DNA of 64,000 nt from a virus (IMGVR_UViG_3300023263_000001:7896-71895); one strand, 5' to 3'. Positions 2,078 to 63,400 are shown, numbered from the stretch's first letter. Numbers and translations are program-made. Notes: a model not told the origin generated them from the sequence alone.

Positions 2078-2775
2078 TTCTTCACGCCCTTCTTGAACGC
2101 TGCCCTCAGCTTCTCGATGATTTGCCCGTGCGTCTGGTGAATGGCCTGCCTGCTCACCTTCCGCGTGCGGGCGATGTCGGCCATGCTGACCTTCTCGTCG
2201 TAGATAAGCCGGAGCAGTTCTTTTTCCGCCGCCGTCAGCTTCACGCGGCACTTCTTCAGGAGCGAGAGGTTCAGCGTCTGCTCCTCCTGCTCCATCACGA
2301 CCTCGTCGGTGCTAGGAGCCAGCTCTGTGGCCGGGCGTTTCTGGTGATTGAGCGGCTTGAGCTCTCCGTCGCCGCGGTTGTCTTCGACGTAGCTCTGGAA
2401 GGTCGGGAAGGTGTCGGAGTGCGAGGACGGCGTGACCACGTTCTTGTCCTTCCACAGGCCCGCGATGGCTCCGCGAAGAAAAGGCATGAGGTATCGGGTG
2501 AAGCGGTTCCCGCGGCTCGGGTCGAAGCGGTCAATGGCGTTCATCAACGCGGCATTGACGGCAGAAATCACTTCGTCGTCCGGTAAACGGCCACGATTTT
2601 GGCGGCGAGCGAAGCGAGCTGCGTAAAGGAGATGATTTCGGATGAGGAATTCGCGAGCCTCCGCATCGCCTTTCTTTGCTTTGGTGAAAAGCTCAACCTC
2701 TTCTTCGGGAGTCGTGAGCTTGAAGCGGAGGTTTTCGTTTGCACGGTAGTAGTTATTGCTGTTCTCGCTGTTCAT
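2074..2775 (-). CDS. Phage-encoded sigma70-family RNA polymerase sigma factor
   Basis: Region 1.2/2 (PEEEVELFTKAKKGDAEAREFLIRNHL, LMNAIDRFDPSRGNRFTRY) and region 4 HTH (SMADIARTRKVSRQAIHQ). Confidence 0.85.
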   Translation of the reverse strand: MNSENSNNYYRANENLRFKLTTPEEEVELFTKAKKGDAEAREFLIRNHLLYAARFARRQNRGRLPDDEVISAVNAALMNAIDRFDPSRGNRFTRYLMPFLRGAIAGLWKDKNVVTPSSHSDTFPTFQSYVEDNRGDGELKPLNHQKRPATELAPSTDEVVMEQEEQTLNLSLLKKCRVKLTAAEKELLRLIYDEKVSMADIARTRKVSRQAIHQTHGQIIEKLRAAFKKGVKK

Positions 2776-5062
2776 TAGGTTTCTGGTATGGGCTGTCCGT
2801 CCGTTGCTCTGGCACATCCAGAACCGTCAGATTCTTGGGATAGTGGGTGCTGCGGTCGATTGCGTATGTGTGAACTCCAGCCGCGCCGGGCCTCTCTTCA
2901 ATCTTGAAGAGGTTGCCCTTGCTAAGCGTGTGAAGGTCGCGATTGAATTTTGGAAAGGGCATCTGTCGAAGGACTTCCGAGATGCCGGGCACTTGCTGAA
3001 ACTGTTGGTAGAGGTCCAGCGCGCACCCAACCCAGTTGTTGGCGTCAGCGTCGGTCTTCGTGAAATATTCGCGCATCCACACGATTAGAACCTGCGCGAG
3101 GGCCGAGGTCTTGCTGGACCGTTGGGCACTCTTCACCATTTCGGGGTTGTGATAGGCCTTGATGCCTCCGAAGCGGGCTTCGTCCTGCGTCGTTCCGACG
3201 CACTGCGGCGGGATTACGTAATCCAGCAGGAATCGGCAGAACCACGGAAGCTCGCGGGCGAGAATTTCATCCAGCTCTTTCTTGGGCGGGAAAACTTTCT
3301 TGGGAGACTGCGCCAAAAACATCATGACCTTGTCCTTCATGCTGGCGTCCATGTCGGGATGAATCTGAGAATCCGCGTCAAGGTTGCAGGTGACGTGAAT
3401 TCGAGCGGTGCATCCAATGACTCCGCCCACGCGGAACTTTTCGTTGCCCTCCCGCTCATTGTTAGCCGTGCCCTTCTTGATGTTTTCGCTGAAGCGGCGC
3501 AGCATCCGTTCGCTTTCGGTCACCGCGGTGTCATCGACAACATGCAGCCCGTAGTCGAAAAGCTGCGAGTTGAACTGAGTCTCTCCGAGCAGGTGCGCCG
3601 CTGCTTCGGCGAAGCCGCCGACGATGCCGCCGAGAATCCTGCGGCAACCAAAGGTCTTGCCGCAAGCCACGGGTCCGGCAATGTAAACGGCGTGCCCGAG
3701 CTGAAGGTCTCGGTGGTAACAGCCCTTGTAAAGGTAGCTGGCCCAGCTCAGGTAAAAGGGCAGCTGGTCAGGCGTGGCGAAGAAGTTGTCGTAGTATTCG
3801 GAAACCCACGGGAACTGCCCATCGGGACCCCAGACGGCGGTGCCGTTCGCAGGTGTCATGGCGTCGATGTTGTGCGTGTTGATATACCAGTCGTTGTTGA
3901 AAAAGATTTTGCCCTTCTTGAAGAAGGCAAAACTCTTCATGCCCTTCACGCGTTGCTGGTGGTGGATGTAGGCAATGGCGCCCTCGACCTCGGAGAACCT
4001 CTCGCCCTTTTTCTTGCTGACCTCGCGAGTCAGGCCGCGGTTCACGAGTAGCTCATTGATGACGTTGTCTTTGTTAAGAATGTCCCAGCGACCGCAGTCT
4101 CGTCTGACGCCGTAATCTTTTCCGTCGAAGTAGATGTCCTTGACGGCGCCCCCGATTCGATTTTCCTCGAAGCGCTTCACCCAGTCCGCGCCTAACAACT
4201 CATACCAAGAGTAGAAGGGCTTGCTCGCGTGATGCGCGAAGGTCCATATGCCGTTGTCCTGAACGATGGCGGAGGTCTTCGATTCCGAACCCTCCACCCA
4301 GAATGTGGGGCCTTGCGTGCCGGGGGCGAAGTCGCCTTCCCACTCCTTGAAGCGGGGATACTGCGTGGCGGACAGTTCGCGAAAGCGCTCCTCAACCATC
4401 TTCGGTGGAATCTTGCAGCCGGGCTCGTTGTCCTTGAAGTTGTAAGCCCGCACCATCTTCACCAGCCAGCCGGAGAGCAGGCCCCAAGGCACCGGGGTCG
4501 TGTGGATTTGTTTCCACTCGGACCCGAGCTGATAATAGCGCGAGGGCTCCATGTAGCCCTTGTCCAGATTGCTCAGTTGGTGAATCGGAAGAAACTCGTG
4601 CAGACTTTTCAGAATGAAGCAAGCAAAGGTGCGCGAGGAAAACATGATGGGCCGCTCGAAAATCCAGACCAGCCGCCAATTACCGGACAGGGAGCGCTCG
4701 ACCCAGTTCGGCTTGATGTCCATGCGAGCGATTGCATTCTCGATTTCCAGCTCGGTGAACTTTGCGTCGTAGTCACCCGGGAAGCTCGTCATTTCGATGG
4801 GGTAGTTTGCGTTGTCCTTTCCGCCGGACTCGGACACGCGCCCGTTCTCGTTGACGCCCACGAAGCCGGAGTAGAAGCAGTAATTGGTCGATGGCTCGTT
4901 GGCCCAAGCGATGCGGGCGCCCTTGTCGGCGATGCAATTCTCGGGGACCTTGTCAACCTTATTCAGCAGTTCCCACGGATTTCCTTCAAACGTTTCAGAC
5001 GAGGAGAGATTCTTAAGATATCGCACAGGATAAGAGTATCTCGGGTTATGGCTTCCCGTCAA
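2753..5062 (-). CDS. Primase-helicase (C-terminal SF3/DUF5906-like P-loop ATPase)
   Basis: 769 aa; Walker A GPVACGKT, Walker B HVVDD, FNSQL and HVTCN motifs; next to PolA. Confidence 0.7.
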   Translation of the reverse strand: MTGSHNPRYSYPVRYLKNLSSSETFEGNPWELLNKVDKVPENCIADKGARIAWANEPSTNYCFYSGFVGVNENGRVSESGGKDNANYPIEMTSFPGDYDAKFTELEIENAIARMDIKPNWVERSLSGNWRLVWIFERPIMFSSRTFACFILKSLHEFLPIHQLSNLDKGYMEPSRYYQLGSEWKQIHTTPVPWGLLSGWLVKMVRAYNFKDNEPGCKIPPKMVEERFRELSATQYPRFKEWEGDFAPGTQGPTFWVEGSESKTSAIVQDNGIWTFAHHASKPFYSWYELLGADWVKRFEENRIGGAVKDIYFDGKDYGVRRDCGRWDILNKDNVINELLVNRGLTREVSKKKGERFSEVEGAIAYIHHQQRVKGMKSFAFFKKGKIFFNNDWYINTHNIDAMTPANGTAVWGPDGQFPWVSEYYDNFFATPDQLPFYLSWASYLYKGCYHRDLQLGHAVYIAGPVACGKTFGCRRILGGIVGGFAEAAAHLLGETQFNSQLFDYGLHVVDDTAVTESERMLRRFSENIKKGTANNEREGNEKFRVGGVIGCTARIHVTCNLDADSQIHPDMDASMKDKVMMFLAQSPKKVFPPKKELDEILARELPWFCRFLLDYVIPPQCVGTTQDEARFGGIKAYHNPEMVKSAQRSSKTSALAQVLIVWMREYFTKTDADANNWVGCALDLYQQFQQVPGISEVLRQMPFPKFNRDLHTLSKGNLFKIEERPGAAGVHTYAIDRSTHYPKNLTVLDVPEQRTDSPYQKPNEQREQQ

Positions 5063-5402: not shown

Positions 5403-7412
5403 TCACTTGAGATAATGTGGGACTTCCTTCGCCTCCGCCGCAATCGGGCAGCCCTTGAGCCACTCGGGGCACTGGGACATGACGTGCTCGACGTCCTTCG
5501 CCGTGACCGACTGGTCCACCTCGTTGATGGCTTCGTCGTGCGCCGAAAAAAGCACCGCACCGTCGCCAAACTCTCTATCCAAGGCTAGGCAATGTTCACC
5601 AAACACGTCACGCGCAATCGCCTGAATCATATTTTCCGTGAGCATGCCGCCGTAGTAGGCGATGCGAACAAGGCGCCCCAGCTTAATCCCCTCGGCGCGG
5701 CACTGAAGACGATTTCGCCACTGGTCCTTTTCCTCGTCATACACCTTGGTCCACTCTTGGGCAACCTTGCGATACGTTAGCGCACGGCCGGAAGGAAGAC
5801 CGATGGAAAACTCTCCATCTAGCACCGAATTCTTGAATGCCTTGTCGAGGTGCTTCCACAGCCCCACAATCTTCGGGTTGTTGGCGCGGAACTCCGCCAC
5901 GCACTTCTTCGAGAAACGTCCGTAGCCCGACTCCATCTTGGGCGTTCCGTCCTTCTCGAGCATGGGTTCTCCTTCGTCGTTCAACAGTGGGATGAACTCC
6001 GGGTCGTCCTTGGTGATGTCAATGCCCGCATTCGTTTGAGCCATCTGGATGAACTTTTCCCAAGCGGCTTGGTAGCCAAGACTGAGCACCTGCGCCTTGC
6101 TGAGCGCGTAGCGGTCCTTGTCCTGTTTTTTCAGTTCGCCGCCGGTCCAGCCCATGTGCTGGCGAGCGAAGGCTTCATAGGGACTTTGCCCCGCCGCCAT
6201 CATGTCGAGGAGCTCTTGGTTGCCGGTGACCCAAGCCAAGCAGCGCGGCTCAATCTGGGAGAGGTCCGCGACAATCATTTTCTTTCCGGCCCGCGGAATA
6301 ATCAGGGAGCGGATGTCGAGGGCGGCGGTCACCCAACTGGGGAGCTTGCCCTCCTTGTAGAGGCTGTATTCAATCTCCTTAAGGCGGTCGGGCTCGGTGA
6401 CGAGAAAACCTTTGTCATCGCGATACAGCGGTTCCTTGCGGAAGTTCTGGAAGTTGATGCCGCCGTCGCCGGACCATCGGCCCGTGTGCGCTCCGAAATA
6501 CTTCAGGCGAAACTGGAGGATGCCGTCCGGGGTCAGGCGTTCCTTGATGGTCTCGAGGTCACCCAAAAATTTGTTGATGGAGCGACGCTTGGCGACGTTG
6601 GCCACCCACTCGAACCGCGGAGAGTAGAGTGCTTCCCACTCGTCGAAGGCTTCCTCGCCCTCGTGGGCCTTCACTGGCGGCGAGGGAATGCCTTCCTTGC
6701 GGCAGCGCTCCGCAATCGCAATGGTCGACGTGGGCTTGAAGCCCTCCTTAATCCAAGGCAGCGTGTTCTCGCAGTCGAGGAGCATCGTGTGCGCCGTCTT
6801 GATGTAGTCGGTGAGCTTCTCGACGTCGATTTGCACCCCGCGCTTTCCCTGTCGACTCGTCTGCCGGGCTAACGCCCTTTCGAACTCCGGCCACTTGTCT
6901 CCGTGCTTGACCCACAGCTCGCGAGTTGTGACGGCGTCACGTCGGCCATACTTCAGCATTTCCGGCCAGAGCCCGTCGGCCTTCATCATGTCCGGCGTCT
7001 TGCCATTCGCTTTGTCACGCACGGTCTTGTCCAGCTCGACGCCTAACAAAAACTTGGCGGCTTCATCGAGGCTCCGTCGGTTACAGAGGTAGGCCGACAT
7101 GTTCGCCGTGCAGAACCAGTCCTTGGGGAAAATCTTGGGGGCAATGCCGAGCTCGACGTTGCGTTCATACACCCCGCTGTCGAAGTGTTCGTTGTGAGAG
7201 ACCAGCGTGTGCCCGTCCAGAGAGTTCCAATTGAAGTCCCGCGGGTGCCCGGCCCAAGTCTGCGTGTCATCGGCCACGGTTATCAGGTAATTGTCGAACC
7301 GCGGGCTGTGCATGTATTGGTAGTCCCCCATTTCGGTGATGGAGTAACCGCCGCCCTTCTTGGCCTTGTGGTAGAAAGTCTCTGTGTCGAATCCAATGAT
7401 GCGGTGGGACAT
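5403..7412 (-). CDS. polA: DNA polymerase family A with 3'-5' exonuclease
   Basis: Exo motifs GFDTET, HNEHFD, YGRRD; pol motif A ADLSQIEPR, motif B KAQVLSLGY, motif C HDEA; ATG at 7412. Confidence 0.95.
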   Translation of the reverse strand: MSHRIIGFDTETFYHKAKKGGGYSITEMGDYQYMHSPRFDNYLITVADDTQTWAGHPRDFNWNSLDGHTLVSHNEHFDSGVYERNVELGIAPKIFPKDWFCTANMSAYLCNRRSLDEAAKFLLGVELDKTVRDKANGKTPDMMKADGLWPEMLKYGRRDAVTTRELWVKHGDKWPEFERALARQTSRQGKRGVQIDVEKLTDYIKTAHTMLLDCENTLPWIKEGFKPTSTIAIAERCRKEGIPSPPVKAHEGEEAFDEWEALYSPRFEWVANVAKRRSINKFLGDLETIKERLTPDGILQFRLKYFGAHTGRWSGDGGINFQNFRKEPLYRDDKGFLVTEPDRLKEIEYSLYKEGKLPSWVTAALDIRSLIIPRAGKKMIVADLSQIEPRCLAWVTGNQELLDMMAAGQSPYEAFARQHMGWTGGELKKQDKDRYALSKAQVLSLGYQAAWEKFIQMAQTNAGIDITKDDPEFIPLLNDEGEPMLEKDGTPKMESGYGRFSKKCVAEFRANNPKIVGLWKHLDKAFKNSVLDGEFSIGLPSGRALTYRKVAQEWTKVYDEEKDQWRNRLQCRAEGIKLGRLVRIAYYGGMLTENMIQAIARDVFGEHCLALDREFGDGAVLFSAHDEAINEVDQSVTAKDVEHVMSQCPEWLKGCPIAAEAKEVPHYLK

Positions 7413-7416
7413 ATTT

Positions 7417-7590
7417 TTATCGGTCTGGACCGTCGCTGTAAGCGCAGAGCCAGCCAACCAGTAGCGACATAGCCACAATCGCCGTGACCACGAACCCAAA
7501 CGCCTTGGCCGCGATGGCGAAAATACCCCCGAGACAAAGAATGAATGGCACTATCAAAAGGCCCAGTAAGAATCGTTGGAGTCGGCTCAC
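7417..7590 (-). CDS. Small two-helix membrane protein
   Basis: GTG start overlapping the upstream TGA; two hydrophobic segments. Confidence 0.4.
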   Translation of the reverse strand: MSRLQRFLLGLLIVPFILCLGGIFAIAAKAFGFVVTAIVAMSLLVGWLCAYSDGPDR

Positions 7591-7928
7591 AGCGTGATGC
7601 CGCAGGACGGCGTTGACTGCACCTTGTTGCGGATGATTTTTCGGATGGCTGCCTCGAGGCGTTTGTGCGCGCACTCCGCGGCGTATCCGGTGATTAAGCG
7701 CAAATCATTTTCAGTCGCGTGAGGGGCCGGGTAAAGGGGCTCGCGGACCTTGCTTTCGATTTGCCGAATGAGACAGTCAACCTCGGCTTCGATATCGTCA
7801 AGGAACTCTTGCGAGACCCTTTTGAACTTACCCGCACGATTCACTTTGGAATACATGAGAGCATGTTCTTTGACGTTGCTGGCGACGGTGAGGTTGGTTC
7901 TTTGGTTGTTTTGTTTGTCGTTGTTCAT
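7587..7928 (-). CDS. Candidate prokaryotic/phage histone-fold protein
   Basis: LTVASNVKEHAL...KFKRVSQEFLDDIEAEVDCLIRQI resembles alpha1-L1-alpha2 of bacterial DUF1931-type histones; C-terminal IRNKVQSTPSCGITL. Confidence 0.55.
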   Translation of the reverse strand: MNNDKQNNQRTNLTVASNVKEHALMYSKVNRAGKFKRVSQEFLDDIEAEVDCLIRQIESKVREPLYPAPHATENDLRLITGYAAECAHKRLEAAIRKIIRNKVQSTPSCGITL

Positions 7929-7949: not shown

Positions 7950-8120
7950 CCTCTCACGACTAACTCCTCCTGAGCATGAGATTTCTGTGTGGTGTTACTG
8001 GCTCCACTGGTCAGTAGGCGGGAGCCACAGCTATTACAAGGAAAAAGGCCCGGCGGATGGTATGCCAAGTGCGCTTTCGCGCAATGTCGGCCACATTTTC
8101 CTAATGCCGGGAAAGTCATT
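7950..8120 (-). ncRNA. Structured RNA or leader upstream of the histone-like gene
   Basis: On the minus strand: CCCGGC/GCCGGG stem enclosing TGCGC-GAAA-GCGCA followed by a U tract; CTGTG-GCTCC/GGAGC-CACAG stem; TCTCATG/CGTGAGA stem; downstream of a sigma70-type promoter. Confidence 0.45.
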
Positions 8121-8298
8121 GTGGTATTCTCGCACAGCAACCTGTCGGTGTCAAATCGAGCGCCAGCAAGCAGGCCGCTTCCATCTCGTCGCGTCGTCGC
8201 TCCCACTCTCGTCGCACCTCGGAGGTCTGGTTGAAGTCCAGAGCCATCTGCCACGCCTCCTTGTAGTTTATCCAAGCTGCGAGGGCAAGAGAGTTCAT
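8116..8298 (-). CDS. Small hypothetical protein
   Basis: ATG after terminator U tract; MNSLALAAWINYKEAWQ... Confidence 0.4.
   Translation of the reverse strand: MNSLALAAWINYKEAWQMALDFNQTSEVRREWERRRDEMEAACLLALDLTPTGCCARIPQ
8126..8154 (-). promoter_or_regulatory. sigma70-type promoter
   Basis: TTGACA-17-GAGAAT with TG extension. Confidence 0.6.
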
Positions 8299-8359: not shown

Positions 8360-9199
8360 CTAGCTGCCCGTAATCTGTTTGATGAAGGCCCGGAAGGTGT
8401 CCGAGGTCTTGACTCCGGCCTTGAGCACCGGCACGTAGGCCGAGTTGCCCGTCCCATAAATCTTCAGCTTGGTGCCGAAGGTGTAGGTGAATGACGAGTA
8501 ACCGCCCGCGGCGAGATGCCCGTTCTTCTTGTCGCTGCGGATGACGCAGGCGCCTTCAGTGAAGAGACCGCCCTTCATGTCCATCGTGGCGAGCGCATAC
8601 TGCTTGTCCTCGCACAGGAACGGAAAAAGAATCCGGTCCGGGTCAGCGACGTCGTTCGGCTTCTGCACCAAGAACAGTGCGGTCGCCAGCGTCTTGAATT
8701 CCTTGGAGGGAATCCCAGCGGCTTTCTTTTCCTTGTGCTCCTTGGAGTTCAAGGTGCCGTTGACCTTCGCCAACTCGGCGAGGCTGTTGCAGAACAGGCC
8801 CTGCTCGTCGCCTCCGTAGGGAACCACTTCGGTGTAGCGGTCCTTGCGGAATCCGATGCACACGATGGTGACCGGCTCGCTGCCAGCCTTCAGCAAGGAA
8901 CCGTCCTTGATGACCGGCGGCGTGTAAATCGCCACTTGGTCCTTGAACACGATTTCACCCAGAGCGAAGGCAACCGCGAGGCTGCTGGACTTCTGGACGA
9001 CCTTGAGCTTCGGGAACTTGATGCCATCGAAGCCGAGGTTCTCCTCGTTGTAGGGGAAAGCAGGGGCGGGAGCCGCTACGTCGTAGGAGACGGGGTTGCC
9101 GTGCTCGTCGCACTGGACGGGCTTGGCAGGCTGTTCCGGGGCGATAGGTTCCGTAGCGTCTACGGGCACACCGGGTTTGGAGAAGTTTACGTTACTCAT
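8360..9199 (-). CDS. Putative ssDNA-binding/annealing protein
   Basis: 279 aa between nuclease and polymerase; FPKLKVVQKSS and aromatic beta-rich pattern; mainly positional inference. Confidence 0.4.
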   Translation of the reverse strand: MSNVNFSKPGVPVDATEPIAPEQPAKPVQCDEHGNPVSYDVAAPAPAFPYNEENLGFDGIKFPKLKVVQKSSSLAVAFALGEIVFKDQVAIYTPPVIKDGSLLKAGSEPVTIVCIGFRKDRYTEVVPYGGDEQGLFCNSLAELAKVNGTLNSKEHKEKKAAGIPSKEFKTLATALFLVQKPNDVADPDRILFPFLCEDKQYALATMDMKGGLFTEGACVIRSDKKNGHLAAGGYSSFTYTFGTKLKIYGTGNSAYVPVLKAGVKTSDTFRAFIKQITGS

Positions 9200-9230: not shown

Positions 9231-10424
9231 CTATCTCGCAGCTTTATTGCTCGAGTCTTTGTCCGTTTTCATGCGGAGAACATTAAAGGAAGGTCCCACC
9301 TCTGCGGCACCCTCGTCAACTATTGCCTGACGAAAAGCTGCAACAGTTTTTTCCTTGTGGTTCCGAGGTGCGGCCAGCTGAATCAGCTCGTCGAGGTTGG
9401 TGATGGCAACGTCATAGAGGGCCTCGACCTTCTCGCGGTGCTCTTCGGGCAGAAAACGCTTGGCAATCTCGCCGACCTTCTTCGGATGCGAGAGCTTGAT
9501 TCGCGACATGGGCACCATTACGTAGCCCTCGGGGATGAACTCCTCGTCGTTCGCGGCCTTGGTCGTGGCGTTCTTGCGAAAGGACTCGGCCCACAGCTTG
9601 ACCACTTGGGCCAGCTTCATTCCTTGGCTCACCTTCACCGGGTCCTCGAGGCTCACGGTGTTGATGTCATCGGGCACAACGAGCGGCGCGTATTTCTTTG
9701 CTACTTGGATGGCGAGCTCGGCGACCTTGGGGCAAACACCAACCAGCGAACAGAAAAGACAAGTGCCAACCGTGGCCCGCGCCATAGAGAAATCCTGAGG
9801 ATTCTTGCTTGCCTCAATGGCTCGGGCAACCACGGTCCGCACTCTAAGGTGAAACGCTTCGGGAACCGAGATGTCAAAAACGAAATCAGATTCATGGTCA
9901 ATGTGGGGCTGGAAAAACAGGACTCGACAGGTCTTCAGCTTGGGAAAGCGACGCTTGAGCCCGAGCATGTATGAGATACCCTGCAGGTTGTCCTTGGCGT
10001 CGGTGACAGCATTCTTGCCAAACTTCCAGTCGATGATTTCCGCGTGGGTCTGGTCGGCGTTGACGATGCAGAAGTCCGCGTATCCCCCGGTGGTGCCCAT
10101 CCAGTAGACTCCGTCCGGACCTTGGATTTGTTCGTCGTCGCAGGGCAGATATTCCTCGCGGATGACCGTGGACCCGATGCCAAACTCGGCAATACGCTCT
10201 GCCACCAGATTGCGGCACTGCTCCACGACTAGGGCCTTGTAGTCTGGGATTCGGTTGTTGTCCTCGCCAGACTCCACGGCGTCATGCTGCAGCGTGCCCA
10301 TGATGGATGCCTCGCTCTCGGTGTGAGTCGGGCTATACTTGGCACAGGCCTCTCGGCATTGAAGAGTAGAGGGCGAGTAGGGATGGTGCGGACGAGGAGT
10401 GACTTGTTCGACTTGGTTGCTCAT
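9231..10424 (-). CDS. PD-(D/E)XK exonuclease (DUF2800/Cas4-like)
   Basis: YSPSTLQCREAC, GTLQH, GGYADF, IIDWKFG, NLQGISY, CLFCSLVGVCP. Confidence 0.8.
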   Translation of the reverse strand: MSNQVEQVTPRPHHPYSPSTLQCREACAKYSPTHTESEASIMGTLQHDAVESGEDNNRIPDYKALVVEQCRNLVAERIAEFGIGSTVIREEYLPCDDEQIQGPDGVYWMGTTGGYADFCIVNADQTHAEIIDWKFGKNAVTDAKDNLQGISYMLGLKRRFPKLKTCRVLFFQPHIDHESDFVFDISVPEAFHLRVRTVVARAIEASKNPQDFSMARATVGTCLFCSLVGVCPKVAELAIQVAKKYAPLVVPDDINTVSLEDPVKVSQGMKLAQVVKLWAESFRKNATTKAANDEEFIPEGYVMVPMSRIKLSHPKKVGEIAKRFLPEEHREKVEALYDVAITNLDELIQLAAPRNHKEKTVAAFRQAIVDEGAAEVGPSFNVLRMKTDKDSSNKAAR

Positions 10425-10585
10425 TTGATTTAGTCCACCAATCACATGCTGAACTGAGAGCCGTCGACCTTTTCTTCGACGACGACGGGACCGTCGAGCA
10501 GGTCACCGAGGTATCGGTGGCCGAGGTTGTAGATGGATGGGTAGGAGCCGAGGTGGTTGTCGGTGTTCATTGCACGCGTTGGTTT

Positions 10586-11352: not shown

Positions 11353-12836
11353 AGCACCGAGAAAATATCACTGAGCTCGCCCTCTGTCAAATGGAGATTT
11401 GAGGCCAGCAGGTCCCCGTCATTCAGGGCGTCTTGCTGGTTCAGGCGGGTCACAAGGCGACGATGCACGGCTTCCTCCCGGGTGCCCGCGGCGAGGATTA
11501 GCCGGTAGAGGCTTTTGGACTTGGCACCGATGCGGGGCAGGCGACCGAACACCTGCCGGATGTTGACCGCCGAGTTGCAAGGCGAAACATGGCCAACGCG
11601 AGGAAAATTCCCGTCGAAATCAGCAAGAGTGATACAAATGCCACCAGCAGCAGAGTTGCAGTTGATAACACGGTTCCGGTTAGCTTGAAAAGAGTCAATG
11701 TGCGCGTCGCGCCTTTTCTTACCCGCTGGCCCCACTTGGGAGCCGTCGATTCGGCATTCTGTTTTGAGTCGTCTGCAGAGTTCATCCAGCGTCTGAGTGA
11801 AGGTCACGAAGTTGACCACGCTGTAGCCTTGGTCGTTCGCGTCCTCGGTGAGTTGCACGAAGATGGGAACCTTCAGCAGCTCGATTTCTTGGAGAGCCCG
11901 GATGATTACCGTCAGGTGTGATTCCTTGTCTGCGGCGGCTCGGTCTCGCAGGGCGCGAATGGAGTCGTCCATTTGTTCGTAAAGCTTCTCGATGGCTCCG
12001 CCCTCGGCTAGGTCATACAGCTCCGCGGTGATTTGGCTTTCGGGAAAGTCTGGCAGGTCCTTGATGCGGACGCGCACACCGTGGTCTGGGAAAATCTTTT
12101 CGTTGAGCTTGGCCATGGTCTGCTTGCGTTCCTGCTCGTTCCCGGCGAAGCGAAATCCACCGTGCGGCGAGGGGCGACAGTTCCAGCGGCGCACCCATGT
12201 CCAGAACCGCACGCCGTGGTCCAGCTCGTGCAGGTCCAGCACGTAGCCAAGGGCCTTGAAGTCGAGCGGGCTGTCTCCGGCTGTGGCTGACAGGCCCAGC
12301 GTCTTGAGGCCCTGACGGCGCGCAGCAATGAGGATTTCCGACTGCAGAGAGTCCGTGGCCTTGCAGCGATGCACCTCGTCGAACACCGCCGCCTTGACCG
12401 CCGGATGAAAAATGAAGCTGCCGTAGTTGTGCGGGATGGACTTCACTTCCACGCAATGGACCGGCCCGTAGGGACACTTCGGCGTTTTGTCTTCAACCCA
12501 GCACTGGCACTGCGTGCATTTCAGGCGGGTCTTCAGGGGTCCGGTCTTGGGAAATTGCCAGCGTCCGTAAGGGGTGCGCCCCGTGCGGAGCATCTCGTAG
12601 CCGATGACGTCATAGGCCACGTTGAGTGACGCCCCTGCCCTAATCCAGCCCGTCCGTGCGACATCTGGGCAGACTACGACTGTGGGAAGGTCCAGCTCTC
12701 GCAACACGGCAGCGGCAACGTAGGTCTTGCCGGTGCCCATGTCGGAGCCGTCGAGGGCCGCGCCATCACGCCGGATGCAGCTGAGCAGGTGCTCCGCTGC
12801 GGCTGGCTGGTGAGGTTTGAGCCCTTCAACGTTCAC
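11349..12836 (-). CDS. Superfamily 2 (SNF2-like) helicase
   Basis: DMGTGKT, FDEVH, LSATAG, RIDGS, AGGICITL, QVFGRLPRIG. Confidence 0.85.
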   Translation of the reverse strand: MNVEGLKPHQPAAAEHLLSCIRRDGAALDGSDMGTGKTYVAAAVLRELDLPTVVVCPDVARTGWIRAGASLNVAYDVIGYEMLRTGRTPYGRWQFPKTGPLKTRLKCTQCQCWVEDKTPKCPYGPVHCVEVKSIPHNYGSFIFHPAVKAAVFDEVHRCKATDSLQSEILIAARRQGLKTLGLSATAGDSPLDFKALGYVLDLHELDHGVRFWTWVRRWNCRPSPHGGFRFAGNEQERKQTMAKLNEKIFPDHGVRVRIKDLPDFPESQITAELYDLAEGGAIEKLYEQMDDSIRALRDRAAADKESHLTVIIRALQEIELLKVPIFVQLTEDANDQGYSVVNFVTFTQTLDELCRRLKTECRIDGSQVGPAGKKRRDAHIDSFQANRNRVINCNSAAGGICITLADFDGNFPRVGHVSPCNSAVNIRQVFGRLPRIGAKSKSLYRLILAAGTREEAVHRRLVTRLNQQDALNDGDLLASNLHLTEGELSDIFSVL

Positions 12837-13378
12837 AGGTTAATTTTCACGACCTCCACTGAGCCCTCTTCCAAGGCGAGCTCAACGGGCTCGAGCTTTC
12901 CGTTCTGTGGCTCATAGAAAAACCACTGCCCATCGTTTCGGCGGATGACGTTCATAGCGTGGTATCCCAGAAGCCACTTGTCTCCTTCCGGGAACACCAT
13001 GAAAATCTTGACGTAAGCAACGCCCACGCTGACCGCAGCTCGCGAGTTGCGGTAGTTTCGCAAGGCCCACACGTCCATCCAGTGCTTGGCTTCACGTGCG
13101 AAGTTGTCGCAGTCCCAAGACTGCTCCGTGTATGGCGTCCACTCCTTGTGCGCGACGGCGAAGGCAACCATGGCCTCGAGGTCTTCCTGCGTGGGAGAAA
13201 TGTAGAAGGCGTCCTCCGGACCGAGAAGCAGGTCGGTGGGCATGACCCAATGGAGGCATTGTTCAATTGCACGAGACATATCCCACCAAGTGAGGATGGA
13301 GTAGGAGGTGAGTGATTCAGCTGACGTGCTGAGCGCTAGTGTGAGTGCAAGCAACAGGCTCGCGATTTTCTTTTTCAA
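12833..13378 (-). CDS. Secreted papain/transglutaminase-like protein (MOA agglutinin C-terminal-like)
   Basis: Signal peptide MKKKIASLLLALTLALSTSA; WDCDNFA, YHAMNV, FYEPQ Cys-His triad pattern. Confidence 0.6.
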   Translation of the reverse strand: MKKKIASLLLALTLALSTSAESLTSYSILTWWDMSRAIEQCLHWVMPTDLLLGPEDAFYISPTQEDLEAMVAFAVAHKEWTPYTEQSWDCDNFAREAKHWMDVWALRNYRNSRAAVSVGVAYVKIFMVFPEGDKWLLGYHAMNVIRRNDGQWFFYEPQNGKLEPVELALEEGSVEVVKINL

Positions 13379-55996: not shown

Positions 55997-57412
55997 ATGC
56001 CCGGAATCGCAGACCTAGTCCCAGCACAAGTTCAAGCCAACTCGCTTGGCGCAGTCGCTCAACCGATTGTCGACCCGTCCTCACTCGGCACGCTGCCGGA
56101 GTTCAAGGACTTCATGGACGCGTATCGTCAAGGCGTCATCACCGTCGAGGACATCAAGCGGCGTCAGACCGTGGGCACCACTGGCTACGAGGCCGAGCGC
56201 GCACAGAACGTCGCGGCCAAGGGTCAAGCGGAACAGGCTGCACTGGACCTCGAGGTGCGTCCAATCCAGCGCGAGCTCGCGAAGGCGCAGGCTCAAGGCG
56301 GAGTGGAGCAGCAGACCATTCTCAATCAGATGAACAGCGAGGACCCGGCGATTGCCATCCCCGCGCAGGAAGCTTTCGTCAAACGCGCCCGCCAGAAGGA
56401 AGCCATCTTAGTTTTCGGCACCGCGACTCCGGAGTTGAAGGTGAAGCAAGAGGACGTCAAGCCCGCGCCTTTCGAAGAGTGGGTGCTGGGTGAGGTGAAT
56501 AATTTTCGGCCCGGAGACAACTCGGAAGAAGCCAACCGAGCTCGCGCCGTCTACAAAACCAATCTGGAAATCGCGGGAGAGAAGGGTCCGGAATACGGGC
56601 TCTACAAGAAAGAGGTCAAGGAGCGCACGCGCACTCTCGAGCCCGGCACTCCCGAATACGACAAGGAACTCCGTCACCAGCTCAGCGAGCGGCTCACGCA
56701 CGAGAAGCTGCAGGAGATTCAGTTTGAGACGATGAAGGAGCTCGGCAAGGCACAGGCGCAAGCCGTGGCTAAGGGGCCAGAGCAGCGCTCAGCCGACGTC
56801 GAGAAAATCGCCAAGGAATACAACGCGCTACCGGCGTTGCATGATTTCGACAAGGTCGATGCCGCCTACAACAAGTTAATTACGGCCACGGACCCCGCAG
56901 TCAAGCCCACGCCTTTGCGCGACCAAGCGGCGATTTTCCAGTGGATGAAAATCCTCGACCCCGGCTCGACGGTTCGAGAGGGCGAGTATGCCTCCGTGAA
57001 GAACGCTCGTGGAGTTCCGGACACCATCATGAACTGGTATAACCAAACCTTGACGGGTCAGATTCTCACCCCCGAACAGCGCAAGGAATTGCGCGAGGCG
57101 GCGGTTCCTGTTTATCAGGGGCAGGTGCAGAACCTAACCCCGCGCATCAAGCAATACGTGGAGCGAGAGCGCTCGGCGGGGTTGCCTCCGGGCTCAGTGG
57201 TTCCTCTGGAACATCGTGCCTTGCTGGAGAGTGGCGGACCGGAAATTCCCGGTGCGGCACCCGCTCCTTCACAGGCCCCGCGCCCGACGGTGGAGCAGGC
57301 GAATGCCGCCCCAGTCTACTCCAGCCTAGCAGAAATCCCGGCGACCGTTCAATTCTTCAAGAAGCCCAACGACCCGAAGAACGTTTGGGTTAATCCTAAC
57401 TTCCAACCATAA
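55997..57412 (+). CDS. Internal virion / ejection protein
   Basis: Helical; AIFQWMKILDPGSTVREGEY motif. Confidence 0.6.
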   Translation: MPGIADLVPAQVQANSLGAVAQPIVDPSSLGTLPEFKDFMDAYRQGVITVEDIKRRQTVGTTGYEAERAQNVAAKGQAEQAALDLEVRPIQRELAKAQAQGGVEQQTILNQMNSEDPAIAIPAQEAFVKRARQKEAILVFGTATPELKVKQEDVKPAPFEEWVLGEVNNFRPGDNSEEANRARAVYKTNLEIAGEKGPEYGLYKKEVKERTRTLEPGTPEYDKELRHQLSERLTHEKLQEIQFETMKELGKAQAQAVAKGPEQRSADVEKIAKEYNALPALHDFDKVDAAYNKLITATDPAVKPTPLRDQAAIFQWMKILDPGSTVREGEYASVKNARGVPDTIMNWYNQTLTGQILTPEQRKELREAAVPVYQGQVQNLTPRIKQYVERERSAGLPPGSVVPLEHRALLESGGPEIPGAAPAPSQAPRPTVEQANAAPVYSSLAEIPATVQFFKKPNDPKNVWVNPNFQP

Positions 57413-60400
57413 TGGCAACTCCTACGCTGCCGACCGTGCCCACCGTCACGAAGTCGGGCGACCCCTTTGCAGGGGCGACGCTCGCAGGGAATCCCTACGT
57501 TGCTCAGGCAATCACGCCGGGCGCGCCGCTGATTCCGTCCTTTGAACAGGCGCGGGCTAATCCACCAGCTGCGGTCCCGGAACCCGTTGCGGACCCTTTT
57601 GCGGGCGCAATCCCGACAACCGTGGCTGACCCATTCGAGGGAGCGACTCCCGCGGGCGACATGCGCGGGTATGACATGGACAAGCTCCGGTCCACAAAGA
57701 TTGAGGACTTGCTGAAAGACAAAACTGAGTTCAACCCGGTGGAGTTTTACGCGAAGAACACGGACGCACTTTTGGCTGACCCGACTGCGCTGCAAAAGGT
57801 AGAGCAGGCCTTCGAAGAGCGCGAGAAGGAACGCATGGGTGTGGGCGGGCTCGCGAAAGCGATTGCCACCGCGCCGCTGCATCCAATAGAGACGGCCAAG
57901 ACCGTTGGAAAAGCCGCCGCAGGCGGTGTGGAATTTCTCAAGACGCTCGCATCGGGTGTTGGACAAGTTTTTGAAACGGGCGGACAAGTGGCTGGCCACC
58001 TTTCCGAGGGCGACCTTCCTGCTGCGGCCAAGGGACTCTCCGAAGCCATCGGCGCCGCGGACACTGCGCAGCAACGCTGGGTCACCATCGTCACGGACAA
58101 GGTCGGCCCTGCTCTCGGAGTTGTTCCTCGCGGAAAAACTGCACGAGAGCGTTTGGCCTTCGACGCGGACTTTAAGCGCGCCGAAATCAACGCGGGCAAG
58201 GGCAACGGAGAGCTCGCGAAAGTGTTAGGCACGGACCAAGACGGGCTCAAGGCGGCTGGCGTCCAACTGGACCCGAACGCCATCGAGAAGCTGTCCATCA
58301 TCACGGACCCCGTGAACCTCGTTCCCATAGGCGGCGTTGTCGGAGTGGTCGGCCGGAGCGGAAAATTTATTCTCGGCAAGGCAGTCTCTCCGGCAGCGGC
58401 AGAGCTTTTTGCGAAGACGGTGAACGGCGCCATGGAAAAGGCCGCGGCTTGGCCCGTGGCGAAAGGTGGCGCAGCCGTCGAGAAAATCGGTGAGACTGTG
58501 GCCACGAAAGGCCCGGCGCTTGTTCGTTCCGGCGCGGCCCGGGGATACGGCGCGATTCACGCGGCAATGAGCGGCGACATCTCGCCACTGGTTGCGGCTC
58601 TCGCGGCTCCCACGGTGGCCAAGGTCGGTGGGCAGGCAATTGCGGCCACCGGTCGCGGAATTCAAGCCGCGGCACCCGCTGTTGGGCGCGTGGTTTCGGA
58701 AGGCGTGAAGGGCGCGGCGGAAGGCGCCGTCATCGCAACGCCTCTTTTCCTCGGCTCGACTGAGGAGGAACGCGAAGGCCTCGGCGGCATGATTGCAGGC
58801 GCGGGTTTTCTGCGCGCTGGTCTCGCGGGCGCGGGCGTCGCAAAGAACGTCGCGGAACGCGGAGAGCAAGCCGTTGGTCGCGCTGTCCAGAATCAGCTGG
58901 CCAAGAAAGTTTTTGAGACCGTGGACCAAGGTCCCGTGGTGGACTCTCCGGCCTACGGCACGGACACCAAGCTGGACATCGCGCACCAAGAGCACCTGCC
59001 CAATCTGCCGAAGGGCGAGCAGGCCCTGCTCAGCCAAGCCCGGGAGTTTTTCCGGGATGCGGGCGTTGAGTTTTACGGGGTCGACCAGAACACCTTCGTC
59101 AACAACGTCCCGAACGTGGCGGGCTCGTCGGCCGCGGAGGGCTTCTATGTCAAGCGGGGCGAGCAGCTGCTCCCGGACGGCACCACGAAGCCGGTCATAC
59201 AGATTCTCCTGAACAAGGACACCAACGGTCTCGGGCACGAGCTCTATCACGCCTTCAAAAGCCTTGACCCTCAAGCATCTAAGGCCCTTGAGTCCCACAT
59301 CGCGAAGACTTGGACTCCGGAAGAGAAGGCTTGGCTGTCAGACACTTACAACTCCGCACTCAATGGCGGAAAACCGAAAGAACAGTGGGTCGCACACCTA
59401 AATGAAAACCAAATTCTTGAAGAGGCTGCCGCCGAAGTCTTTGGGCGTATTGTCAACGCCTCCGACCTCAGCGGAGTCCGTCCCAGCATCGTCAAACGTG
59501 GCGCCACCTTCGCCAGCTCGGTCCTCGACAAAATGGGCTATTCGCTTGGAGGGAAAGCCCTTCCACAAGGACCGGGTGTCTCTGCTCTCGGCATTCGCCC
59601 AAGCACGGCTGAAGCCCGAGTAGCGCAGGATTTTCTCGGTGACATGACCAAGCGGGCCAAGGAAGGCCGATTGGGCACCGCGACGCCCGGCAACCCGCTC
59701 GAGGCGGCGCCCTCAGGACCGATTTCTAGGCGCCCGGCGGCGGAACCCACCCCGACACCCCAGATTCCGGCTGCGGCAGCCCCAGCGGCTCCCAGCGCAA
59801 AGCCCGCCCCCGCCCCGGCTCCCGCGGCCCCGGCGCCCCAAGCCCCCAATATCCGGGTCACTCCGAAGGAACAGGCCGACTTTGCCTCCGAACGAGCTGC
59901 GGTGACCAACACCGACCAAGCAGCGGCTGCCGCGGTGAAGGCGGACAAGGTCCCACAGGTGACCGCCATCAACGACGCCATGAACGCCGGTCACGCCGTG
60001 GAGATTGTCCACAAGGGCGTCATCCGCGAGGGCGGGCCGAGCCCCGAGAAACCGGTGGCCCGGGGCGAGCGACGCGCAGAGCAGGAAGCGGCCTACATCG
60101 CCGAGGCCATGGGCGCCGTGCCCGACTCCGTCCGGGAACCGCACCAGAAACTTTTCTTCGGCACGCGCTGGATTAAGGGTGGCAAGCAGCTGACCGCCCG
60201 GAGCGTGGACAAGGCCCTCGCGAACATCAAGAACGCCGTGGACATGGCGGCAGACAAAAAAGTAGCCCTCCCCTACGAGGTCGACGCGTCTGGAAAACTC
60301 ACCGAGGCCGGTTGGACCGAGGCAGTGCAGGACCTCAAGGATTACTGGTCCAATCAGGACCGAGGCTTCCGTGGCGACGGTCAAGCGCTCGCGCCCGAGA

Positions 60401-63400
60401 CGCGCACGCGTGACGTTGGACAGAGCATTCCGCCTCAGGACCCGGCCGGACCGGCGGCGATTATTTCCCCGGAGCGCATGGACTTTTTGAATCTGGTGCA
60501 GGGCCTCAACATCCCCGCGACGGTCAAGGGCCAGCAGGCCGGAAAGGTTCCCGGCAACATCAAGGGACAGATTCTGGCTGAGATTCAGGGCAAGCGACCC
60601 GCGACCCCTGCAGGCTTCACGGCCGCGGACGTCCAGAAGGCGACCTTCAAGCCCATCGAAGGCGAGCTCGCCGCCCGCAGCATCATGGAAGTGAACCCGC
60701 TGCGAAATGATTTGCGTGCCAAGGGCGCGCCCGTCGAGAATCTCATTGAGGTCACCGAGAACATCAAGCAGGAGAACATCGAGTCCGTCACCCCACGACC
60801 CGACGTCACTGGCCGCGGTGGCTCGACGGACATTACACGCGCTGGCTTCTCCGTGAAGAACGTGGCCGACGCCGCGAAGATTCTCGACCAGTCCCCGCAG
60901 GAGTGGACCGACACAATCAAGACCACCATGGGTGGAAAGCTCACGCCCGCCGCATACCGGCTCGGGCTCAGCCTAACAGATAGGGCGGACCTCGCCAAGC
61001 TCGCCACGATGCGCGACAAAGCGGAAGCGCAGGGCAAGGAGTTCATGGCGAAGGGTGATTTCGAAGCCGCGATGCCCACCATCATGAAGGCCCAGTTCTT
61101 CCGCGAGGCTTGGGAAGCCGCACAGGGAACGGGCAGCGCACGTCGAGGCCTGAAGCTCGTCGACGAGTTCAAGGACGCAGTGCCGCCCTTCTCGGAACCG
61201 CAGCAAAGCTTTTCTGTGGCGGCAGACTTCGAGAAGAGTCTGGACCCAGTCAAGATGGCAGCCATCCGAACCAAGGGTGGAAACATTTACACGGGTTCGT
61301 GGCACGGCGAGGCTTACTTGAACATGGCGGATGCCGTGGGCCGCGGTGAAGGTCCCAAAGAAGCTCTGCCGGAAGGATTCAAAAGCCTCACGGAATTATT
61401 GGACTCCGTCATGGGTGGAGAGAAGATTGATTTCATCGAAGACGGCTTCGTGACCGAGAGCGGAAAGTTCCTGAACCGCCAAGAGGCCTTCGAGCACGGC
61501 AAGAGAATTGGCCAGCTCAAGGAGGGCTACGGTGAGAAGACCCGCGGTGGAAACATGGAAAAAGAGGGGATGCTAGAGAGCGACGAGTTCAATCGCGGCA
61601 AAAGTTTTTCTCCTGTCGCCAAGCCCAGCCCGGAAATCCGGGACGTGGCGGCGAAGGCAGCAGCGGAGCGAGCCCCCAAGACTGGCCCCACAAAAATCCA
61701 GCAGGCCCGCGCCATGGGTGGGGGTGAGGAATCTTTTTCTCCAAGTGTCCCGACCGACAAGGAAGTCACCGCTGCCCTCAGCGAGGACAAGAAGCCTTTC
61801 GTCGGCGCGCACCGAGACCTCGAGCCCGGCACGCCTGTCGGTCTCCGCATCGACATTCCCGCGTTCACGCGCAACGGCACCTACGTGGTGACCGTTCACG
61901 AGAAAGCCAAAGGCGGCGCAGTCGGAAAACGCATCGGCTACGACAGCGTGGCCACTGTGGACAACCCGACCTTTTTCTCCAACGAGAAGGGCGCTCTACA
62001 AATTAAGGAGGGCCGCGCCAAGTTTCCGATTGCGACGGTCGAGGGCGAGTTCAATCCGTCCCGTGAGGTCCCCGAGGCGGGTGGAGAGTGGACCGAGGTG
62101 GGTTACAACCCGACCAGACACTCCTACTTCTTCGAGAAGGGCACCGAGGAGCCCGTGGTCAGCGGTTCTCAAGCCGTGAGCGCGGGCAACAGCGTGTTCG
62201 TGAAGGACGCCGTGTTCGGAAATAAGGAGGACTTCGCTTTCAGTGCCGCACCGGAAGAACGCGTGGCCAAACCGGCAACCGGAGCTCACGTCACCCAGAA
62301 AAAGGTGGCGGGCACCCCCGAGTTCAATGCCTACGTTCAGAACAAAATCGAGAAGAGCCAGAATTTTCCTGAGGCCTTCCCGCTCGAGTTCCGTCAGGAC
62401 AAGGACGGCAACTACGAGGCCCAGTGGGACGGAGAGCCCTTGCCCAAGGCGAAACCCTACAACCTGCTGAAATCTGACCTAGCCCAGAAGCTTGGCGACG
62501 AAGACGCGTTCGCGAGCGCACTTGCGGACAAGCTGGAGCGAGAATACCAGAAGGCCAAAGAGAACCCGGTGATTTCGGAGGGTGAGTTTTGGTATTCCAC
62601 TTTCCGAGACAAGGTCGGCAAGGTTCTGGGCGACGACACGAAGCTGTTCGCCGAGTTGTTAGGCGCCACGTCTCCACAGCAAGCCGTCGGCCCCAACTTC
62701 AAGGATGCCCTTGGAGCTTACAACCAATACAAGAGCGGAGCCTACGACGCCATGCTTGCCAAATATCAAGAGGGCAAGCACAAGTTTGCAGCGGGTGACA
62801 TCGCCGAGTTCACGGAAGAGACGGGCAAGACCGGCAAGAAGGCGACTAAGGAAGCCTTTCTGAACTGGTGGCAGAAGAAGCACGACCTGATTCCCAAGAA
62901 AGCCAATGGCAAAAAGTTTGGTATGAACTCTCGAGCGGTGCTCAAGGTTCTCGATGGCTCTTGGCTCGAGGGAGTGCAAGGACCAAAGACCCCAAACTTC
63001 ACAGGCAACCTCGCGGGCACCACTTTCAAGGCTACCATCGACGTGTGGGCCATGCGCGCCCTGTCGCGTCTTGCCAACGAGGAGTCTGGCAAGCCTTGGC
63101 GAATCCAGAATGCGAACGAGTCCGGAGTCGCGGACCCTGAGTTTTTCTTCGGCCAGAAAGCATTCCAACAGGCGGCGGACAATCTGGGCATCAAGGCCGA
63201 TGCGCTCCAAGCCATTCTCTGGTTCGCCGAGAAAGACCTGTGGGAGAAAAACGGATGGACCGGTGCAGCCGGAAAAGCGAAGTCAGATTACAACACGCTC
63301 CTAGACCGAACTGTCAAATCCCCAGAGGGCCAGTTGATTTTCACGCCAGAAGAGGTCAAGCCCAAGGCCAAGAAGCCAAAGGCCCAGCTGGAGCTCGACA

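Follow-up and report, generated by a model that had tools for sequence, protein, structure and literature searches.

Histones of bacteria and bacterial viruses have come to light only recently and, so far, mostly by computation, and the literature searched contains no experimentally characterised phage histone. A 113-codon open reading frame (ORF) next to the gene of a family-A DNA polymerase (PolA) in a phage genome raises the questions of whether a phage carries a histone in its replication module, how such a chain would be built and what it would do beside a polymerase. The DNA analysed here (the window) is a stretch of 64,000 nucleotides from a 71,895-bp complete IMG/VR virus record with direct terminal repeats and a GC content of ~58%. 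For most of its structural proteins, PHROGs offer no match. Since most of the large late-region ORFs (those of 644, 718, 432, 427 and 666 residues) are without a PHROG match, the source phage belongs to a poorly known clade very distant from cultured phages. A 2004-residue ORF (57412-63426, plus strand) has a weak C-terminal match only, to a PHROG without an assigned function.

Gene, protein family and relation to short histones

The ORF occupies positions 7587-7928 of the minus strand, begins with ATG, ends with a stop codon at 7587-7589 and is present in a single copy in the 71.9-kb genome. Two earlier candidate starts, GTG 7957 and ATG 7977, are both out of frame. The encoded 113-residue protein (P0001; the window protein) is basic, with a pI of 9.1. 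The initial annotation had proposed a histone here from three sequence strings, all of which lie where it placed them. LTVASNVKEHAL spans residues 13-24 and is followed, after nine residues, by KFKRVSQEFLDDIEAEVDCLIRQI (residues 34-57), and EAAIRKIIRNKVQSTPSCGITL covers residues 92-113, but the spacer between the last two strings is 34 residues long instead of the claimed ~40. The ORF is a real gene with invariant key motifs and homologues in 28 clusters (103-116 residues) in a word-indexed first search and, in an exhaustive profile search, in 323 representative clusters (50% identity), of which 90 scored an E-value below 1e-10.

The 185 proteins retrieved comprise 127 long forms, 38 singlets of ~60 residues and 20 partial sequences. 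Every form is basic, the median pI being 9.2 for the long forms and 10.6 for the singlets. The 60-residue relatives have the layout α1, RAGKFTRVS, α2 and HPSxGKTL. An extra N-terminal segment is present in 26 of the 127 long forms. This extension of ~100 residues, found in about a fifth of the long forms (P0037, P0050, P0053, P0066, P0085, P0122, P0175), contains a conserved LTPxEATxxMDxYRRxYP motif and a basic Pro/Ala-rich linker and has no Pfam match. Among the best 150 profile hits, no fusion to a replication protein was found.

The family is in effect phage-specific, given its near absence from 185,579 cellular species genomes, in which a relative was found on two MAG contigs only, one of them with the same phage gene order. 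A 20.9-kb contig (L039, JABFSS010000028.1) in a 'Candidatus Peribacteraceae' MAG carries the same replication module of DUF2800, orf279, the histone-like gene, PolA and the 769-residue protein; the bin probably includes a phage contig here, and a host assignment from it is unreliable. A tblastn search with the long and minimal forms against 50,697 deposited GenBank phage genomes returned no match.

Homology to histones was computed by profile comparison. The window family was aligned by hhalign with a family composed of the histone HTkC of Thermococcus kodakarensis (9F2C segment) and its Thermococcales homologues, and matched with a probability of 93.0% and an E-value of 3.4e-7 (window residues 13-55 on HTkC residues 4-40). 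The minimal (60-residue) family aligned with the HTkC family end to end (probability 96.9%, E 1.8e-10). When the PDB was searched with the minimal-family profile, HTkC (9f2c) was the sole significant match (E 4.8e-5, profile positions 3-60 of 61), in a register that places RVS on RVS and G-KTL on GRKTL. The first family profile, that of the window family, gave a non-significant result against the PDB (0.55). A single-sequence phmmer search of the PDB with the window protein found nothing significant, with 9f2c at E 0.82 as a lead only; its top matches, ankyrin-repeat designs, were non-significant and were rejected as spurious.

The profile comparisons support the histone fold that had been claimed for this ORF. 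The window family is very probably a histone-fold homologue of the short, α3-truncated type represented by HTkC and HBb. The accompanying label 'DUF1931-type' is a loose one: a Pfam scan of the window protein gave no match even at E 10, including CBFD_NFYB_HMF (PF00808) and DUF1931 (PF09123). The PHROGs scan of the window protein likewise gave nothing usable (E above 0.2). The silence of Pfam is uninformative, because the crystallised histone HTkC itself scores 18.8 bits against a gathering cut-off of 21.4. If the assignment is right, the family constitutes a large phage-restricted histone-fold clade of 323 clusters that escaped Pfam, PHROGs and the 50,697 phage genomes.

HTkC, a face-to-face α3 histone (PMC11390915), is the best sequence, profile and local structural match to the window protein. 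HTkC and the window family share (V/I)xSxVK in α1, RVS at the start of α2 and G-x-T-L in L2, and both have a unit of ~60 residues arranged as α1-L1-α2-L2 with α2 helices of similar length. The window protein differs from HTkC in its longer L1 loop, in having no α3 and in lacking the R and D of the RxTxxxxD motif. Moreover, HTkC assembles into a symmetric homodimer or tetramer, unlike the phage-encoded window protein, which is probably a degenerate doublet within one chain. HBb/Bd0055 (8CMP) and HLp (9QT0), bacterial histones with which the initial annotation had compared the protein, also have short α3-truncated folds that superpose on the window model, but the PDB sequence searches did not match them significantly, and they are symmetric dimers or tetramers of cellular chromatin.

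Structural comparison plays a supportive part, and the histone case rests on the profile comparisons, given weak Z-scores and the silence of Foldseek. AF2 models the window protein (pLDDT 83.7) as three helices (residues 16-30, 40-59 and 81-105), with a pLDDT below 50 for C-terminal residues 111-113. The model superposes on HTkC with an rmsd of 1.9 Å over 48 residues at 35% identity (VIA), and its residues 11-64 superpose on HBb and HLp with Z-scores of 4.6 and 4.4, respectively, and rmsd values of 1.9-2.2 Å. The top of the VIA list is largely occupied by TAFs, SAGA histone-fold subunits and histone doublets at Z-scores of up to 6.4, a range that the tool describes as common for helical proteins. 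Foldseek, which the initial annotation had named as a check, found no significant match in the PDB for the AF2 monomer model or for a related doublet model described below. The nearest named ESM Atlas clusters all belong to histone Pfam families and provide a weak independent lead. An unrelated small helical phage protein that resembles histones by chance would be in keeping with the absence of Pfam and PHROGs matches, the empty Foldseek result and the weak VIA Z-scores. Such a coincidence is hardly credible in view of the two profile-profile E-values and of HTkC as the single significant PDB match, aligned end to end and motif on motif; the missing Pfam match does not help it, as HTkC itself falls below the thresholds.

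Architecture of the long forms

The window protein contains two helical segments that align with histones, a linker and a C-terminal helix followed by a short tail, all encoded on the minus strand. The α1 segment (residues 13-30, 7839-7892) begins with LTVASNVKEHAL, aligns with the HTkC α1 sequence MLVKSKVKEF in hhalign, falls within the 48-residue VIA superposition on 9f2c and corresponds to AF2 helix 16-30. The SKVK lysines of α1 are partly kept, as N18 and K20. The following L1 loop, RAGKFKRVS (residues 31-39, 7812-7838), harbours the invariant F35 and R37 columns and is 6 residues longer than that of HTkC (RAGKF insert). R37 falls on the arginine of RVS in HTkC, where the L1 'sprocket' arginine lies. 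The α2 helix (residues 40-61, 7746-7811; AF2 helix 40-59) overlaps the first domain matched by the minimal-family hidden Markov model (HMM). It is ~22 residues long, similar to that of HTkC; α3-truncated histones have been described with an α2 shortened by 4-5 residues.

The linker (residues 62-80, REPLYP...LRLITG, 7689-7745) was delimited by alignment with the doublets P0185, P0169 and P0136 and stands where these natural doublets have L2 plus α1′-L1′. It is non-helical in the AF2 model, with a pLDDT of ~78-86. The C-terminal helix, α2′ (residues 81-105, 7614-7688; AF2 helix 81-105), contains a second α2 core in the second minimal-family HMM domain and leads into the L2′ tail STPSCGITL (residues 106-113, 7590-7613), in which P107, G110 and T112 are invariant. 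T112 aligns with the DNA-binding threonine of the histone RKT motif. The L1 sprocket arginine and the L2 threonine are DNA-contacting residues in histones (PMC11390915). The threonine is the only residue of the RxTxxxxD motif that is kept; an invariant glycine lies two residues before it, and no aspartate follows. An α3 helix is absent, as the window protein ends 0-2 residues past the L2-like PSxGxTL motif, a loss more extreme than in the described α3 histones, in which α3 retains 3-4 residues. DSSP assigned no strand in the AF2 monomer model of the window protein.

The middle of the protein had been interpreted as an internal insertion, an interpretation that calls for amendment. The minimal-family HMM matches two domains in all long forms of the first search (28/28), with overlapping HMM ranges of 2-48 and 36-60. 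In the window protein, these domains cover residues 10-56 and 89-113, the second with an i-E of 1e-8. Because the HMM coordinates overlap, the α2 core occurs twice, as DDIEAEVDCLIRQ and as KRLEAAIRKIIRN, and a simple insertion into α2 was rejected for this reason. The long forms instead have two α2-like helices, and the C-terminal helix together with PSxGxTL represents a second α2-L2.

Natural doublets display less reduced arrangements of the same elements. The 140-residue protein P0136 is a tandem doublet with both units intact. The proteins of loci L031 (113 residues) and L037 (125 residues) are asymmetric doublets, in which unit 1 has L1 and lacks L2, and unit 2 has a recognisable α1′, a decayed L1′ and a preserved α2′-L2′. 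The doublets P0185 and P0169 keep only the L1 of unit 1 and the L2 of unit 2. In an alignment of 37 singlets, doublets and long forms, just four residues never vary: the F and R of L1 and the G and T of L2. The handshake of a histone pair brings the L1 of one unit against the L2 of its partner. The asymmetric doublets would therefore have retained a single composite site.

The AF2 model of the L031 doublet (P0185; pLDDT 84.6) contains α1, α2, α1′ and α2′, with β residues in L1 (30-31) and L2′ (107-108 and 111-112). Its best full-length matches are the Melbournevirus doublet (Z 6.1, 79 residues) and the Methanopyrus kandleri histone (Z 5.9, 85 residues), followed by a fused H2A-H2B (Z 5.6, 85 residues) and DUF1931 (Z 5.1, 84 residues). 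The top row of its Foldseek output, a single-chain Cse4/H4 pair, is non-significant, and unit 2 of L031 has a sub-threshold Pfam match to the CENP-T histone fold. Known doublets and pseudodimers, namely HMk of M. kandleri (1F1E), the Melbournevirus histones (9CVT/7N8N) and the DUF1931 protein 1WWI, hold two handshake-paired units in each chain and are the top full-length structural matches of both the window and L031 models, at Z-scores of only 5-6. These doublets keep both complete folds, whereas unit 2 of the window protein has lost α1′ and L1′ and neither of its units has an α3.

On these grounds, the window protein is likely a degenerate doublet in a single chain, with one L1-L2 site left. 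Unit 1 would retain α1, the extended L1 loop (RAGKFKRVS) and α2, and unit 2 would have lost α1′ and L1′, now a ~20-residue linker, while retaining α2′ and the L2 loop PSCGITL, without α3. Histone doublets align to the window model from residue 13 to 113 (VIA), and these alignment ranges place helix 81-105 where the α2 of a partner would lie. Since a handshake pairs the L1 of one unit with the L2 of its partner, the chain may double back, or two chains may exchange segments, and either arrangement would create one composite L1-L2′ site. From the doublet alignment ranges and the doublet model, we infer intramolecular L1-L2′ pairing in the window protein; a domain-swapped dimer is equally possible, because AF2, when modelling a monomer, can satisfy within one chain contacts that belong between two. 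The composite site would comprise R37, T112 and a cluster of conserved Lys/Arg residues and is predicted to bind dsDNA. The forms of the family could then be arranged in an evolutionary series from a symmetric singlet through a tandem doublet and an asymmetric doublet to a three-helix chain with one composite L1-L2 site, and this series would illustrate a possible reduction of a histone dimer to a minimal DNA-binding module.

The C-terminal helix is also the point at which the window family can be compared with published phage histones. A small 'phage histone' category has been described, with an N-terminal α3 fold and a C-terminal helix for which a role in tetramer formation is predicted (Schwab et al. 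2024, PMC11390915). This category is without RxTxxxD, and its logo-conserved residues are K10, G17, R30 and K49 (K19, G26, R39 and K58 in A0A2E7QIQ9) (PMC11390915). The category was extended to the VTTHFP and VHHHFP clusters of Caudoviricetes (Liu et al. 2025, PMC13681535). Phage-encoded α3-type histones are thus a known, predicted kind (PMC11390915, PMC13681535), and a search for later literature on phage α3 histones found none. The window family resembles these proteins in being phage-encoded, α3-type, known from metagenomes and without RxTxxxD, and the long C-terminal helix after a loop in some of them recalls the layout of the window model.

A window protein of the described 'phage histone'/VTTHFP type would pair with a second chain in a handshake dimer through its N-terminal α3 fold and tetramerise through its C-terminal helix, and the tetramer would bridge two DNA duplexes. 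The AF2 order of α1, α2, loop and long C-terminal helix fits the published description (PMC11390915, PMC13681535), as do the missing RxTxxxD motif and the origin in tailed-phage metagenomes. Membership in this type is nevertheless improbable. In the published type, L2 directly follows α2, and the C-terminal helix is an extra element for tetramerisation; in the window family, that helix is a second α2, homologous together with its tail to the minimal-family α2-L2, and it ends in the invariant L2 motif at the very C-terminus. The L1 and L2 residues are, in addition, jointly invariant. The published positions imply a short L1 and an L2 right after α2, whereas L1 is 6 residues longer here and L2 is C-terminal; the spacing of conserved residues in the window family misfits the published one, in a comparison made from the published descriptions. 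Neither PMC11390915 nor PMC13681535 contains the polymerase linkage described below or the series from singlet to doublet to degenerate doublet.

Linkage to polymerase genes and proposed role

The gene directly downstream of the histone gene encodes PolA (698 residues, 5403-7499, minus strand; likely start ATG near 7412), which includes a 3′-5′ exonuclease domain. PolA matches phrog_17 (DNA polymerase, E 1.1e-75) and, weakly, the Pfam DNA_pol_A and 3′-5′ exonuclease families, and it lies on the same strand ~90-175 nt downstream of the histone gene. Upstream, the replication module contains a 279-residue protein without an assigned function (orf279, 8360-9199, minus strand) and a DUF2800/PD-(D/E)XK exonuclease (9231-10445, minus strand). 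Downstream of PolA, a 769-residue protein (2753-5062, minus strand) with a Walker-A-like GPVACGKT motif is syntenic in all related phages; neither Pfam nor PHROGs matches it, and only its position suggests a primase/helicase-like protein. The same-strand module also holds a helicase (phrog_62).

This gene order is conserved. The order DUF2800 nuclease, orf279, histone gene, PolA and 769-residue protein was found in 30 of 32 full-length IMG/VR loci and on one MAG contig, and the histone gene lies upstream of PolA on the same strand in every locus with both genes (31/31), with a median gap of 145 bp between the histone gene and the first PolA match. The order is kept even where the histone-like proteins share 35-40% identity and the PolA proteins 42-50%. 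The placement of the gene beside PolA in a replication module, as originally proposed, is thereby substantiated by the phrog_17 match and by the synteny. The minimal form of 61-62 residues occurs in unrelated AT-rich phage contigs, where its gene sits among clamp-loader-like genes and follows that of an 867-911-residue polymerase with a YSDTDS motif, read as family B from this motif only.

The proposed co-transcription of the histone gene with PolA is plausible, given the shared strand and a scan that found no terminator-like site on the minus strand. A promoter-like TTGACA-17-GAGAAT sequence (8126-8154, minus strand) lies ~200 nt upstream of the start codon. It is a consensus match only, from a scan that found 1 site against 0.6 expected.

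The reading favoured here, with moderate confidence, is that the window protein is a basic, phage-specific degenerate doublet that binds DNA and assists phage replication as an accessory or architectural factor. Both the DNA binding and the coupling to replication have the balance of probability slightly on their side. A DNA-binding role coupled to replication is suggested by the basic charge, the invariant DNA-contact residues and the linkage to two kinds of polymerase, and the strictness of this linkage favours the coupling to replication; adjacency of the two genes is no proof of a functional link between their products. The phage φ29 protein p6 is a small DNA-binding protein encoded in a replication operon. 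The window protein may play a comparable role, as an analogue in function with no sequence relationship to p6, rather than that of a nucleosome-type packaging histone; a single L1-L2 site in each chain makes nucleosome-like wrapping by the long form less likely. The coupling to polymerase genes of two families offers a concrete hypothesis for what a phage histone does.

The basic histone fold and the phage-restricted, conserved distribution of the family would also suit an abundant, genome-wide phage chromatin protein along the lines originally proposed, one that coats replicating DNA non-specifically and thereby compacts it or shields it from host nucleases and defence systems, or that displaces host nucleoid proteins. 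The Bdellovibrio histone HBb is reportedly an abundant constituent of chromatin, which counts in favour of this possibility. A general coat or shield of this kind is nonetheless unlikely, since a chain with one L1-L2 site lends itself less to wrapping or polymerising than symmetric dimers do and a tight, deep linkage to polymerases of two families would be needless for it.

The preferred reading of an accessory replication factor can be taken further. The histone-fold pair Dpb3-Dpb4 (POLE3-POLE4) of DNA polymerase ε binds dsDNA next to the polymerase. Like the members of this pair, the proteins of the window family are small, are predicted to bind DNA and are tied to a polymerase gene, and by analogy they may contact PolA physically. 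The window protein might, tentatively and with the odds against it, be a dedicated histone-fold accessory subunit of phage replicative polymerases, a viral counterpart of Dpb3-Dpb4. As such, it would grip the duplex through its single L1-L2′ site and tether or load the polymerase, and the subunit would have persisted through exchanges of the polymerase between families A and B. A physical link to the polymerase, if there is one, would make a parallel to the histone-fold subunits of eukaryotic Pol ε.

A histone fold could, alternatively, act without DNA as a protein-protein adaptor, for example as a bridge between replisome components. Some prokaryotic histone-fold categories lack DNA-binding residues (PMC11390915), an adaptor function has been proposed for DUF1931 proteins and many TAF-type folds, and in the window protein RxTxxxxD is incomplete and the SKVK lysines are only partly kept (N18, K20). 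This possibility is very improbable, as the invariant L1 arginine and L2 threonine are two histone DNA contacts and all forms are basic, up to the pI of 10.6 of the singlets.

Neighbouring open reading frames

Several small ORFs were observed around the histone-like gene and its relatives. A possible 60-residue ORF (MNSLALAAWINYKEAW...) lies between orf279 and the histone-like gene (8116-8297, minus strand). The TTGACA-17-GAGAAT sequence overlaps the 3′ end of this ORF and is followed by ~190 nt of non-coding DNA before the histone start. The 174-nt gap from the histone stop to the likely PolA start (~7417-7586, minus strand) holds an open frame that encodes a strongly hydrophobic sequence of ~50 residues (LLGLLIVPFILCLGGIFAIAAKAFGFVVTAIVAM...), possibly a small membrane protein. 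In the close relatives L001 and L002, the gap between the histone gene and PolA is only 2-19 bp.

Further upstream in the window, a 181-residue ORF (12833-13378, minus strand) matches ricin-type β-trefoil lectin and agglutinin C-terminal domains just above the Pfam cut-offs (29.0 and 27.7 bits), an odd content for a replication module. Among the loci with the minimal form, the B-family-like polymerase of L038 (1943-5769) is split into ORFs of 526 and 457 residues by a 193-residue ORF, possibly a homing-endonuclease-type insertion. In L036 (2777-5939), a 140-residue ORF that appears Nudix-like by eye lies between the polymerase and the minimal histone gene.
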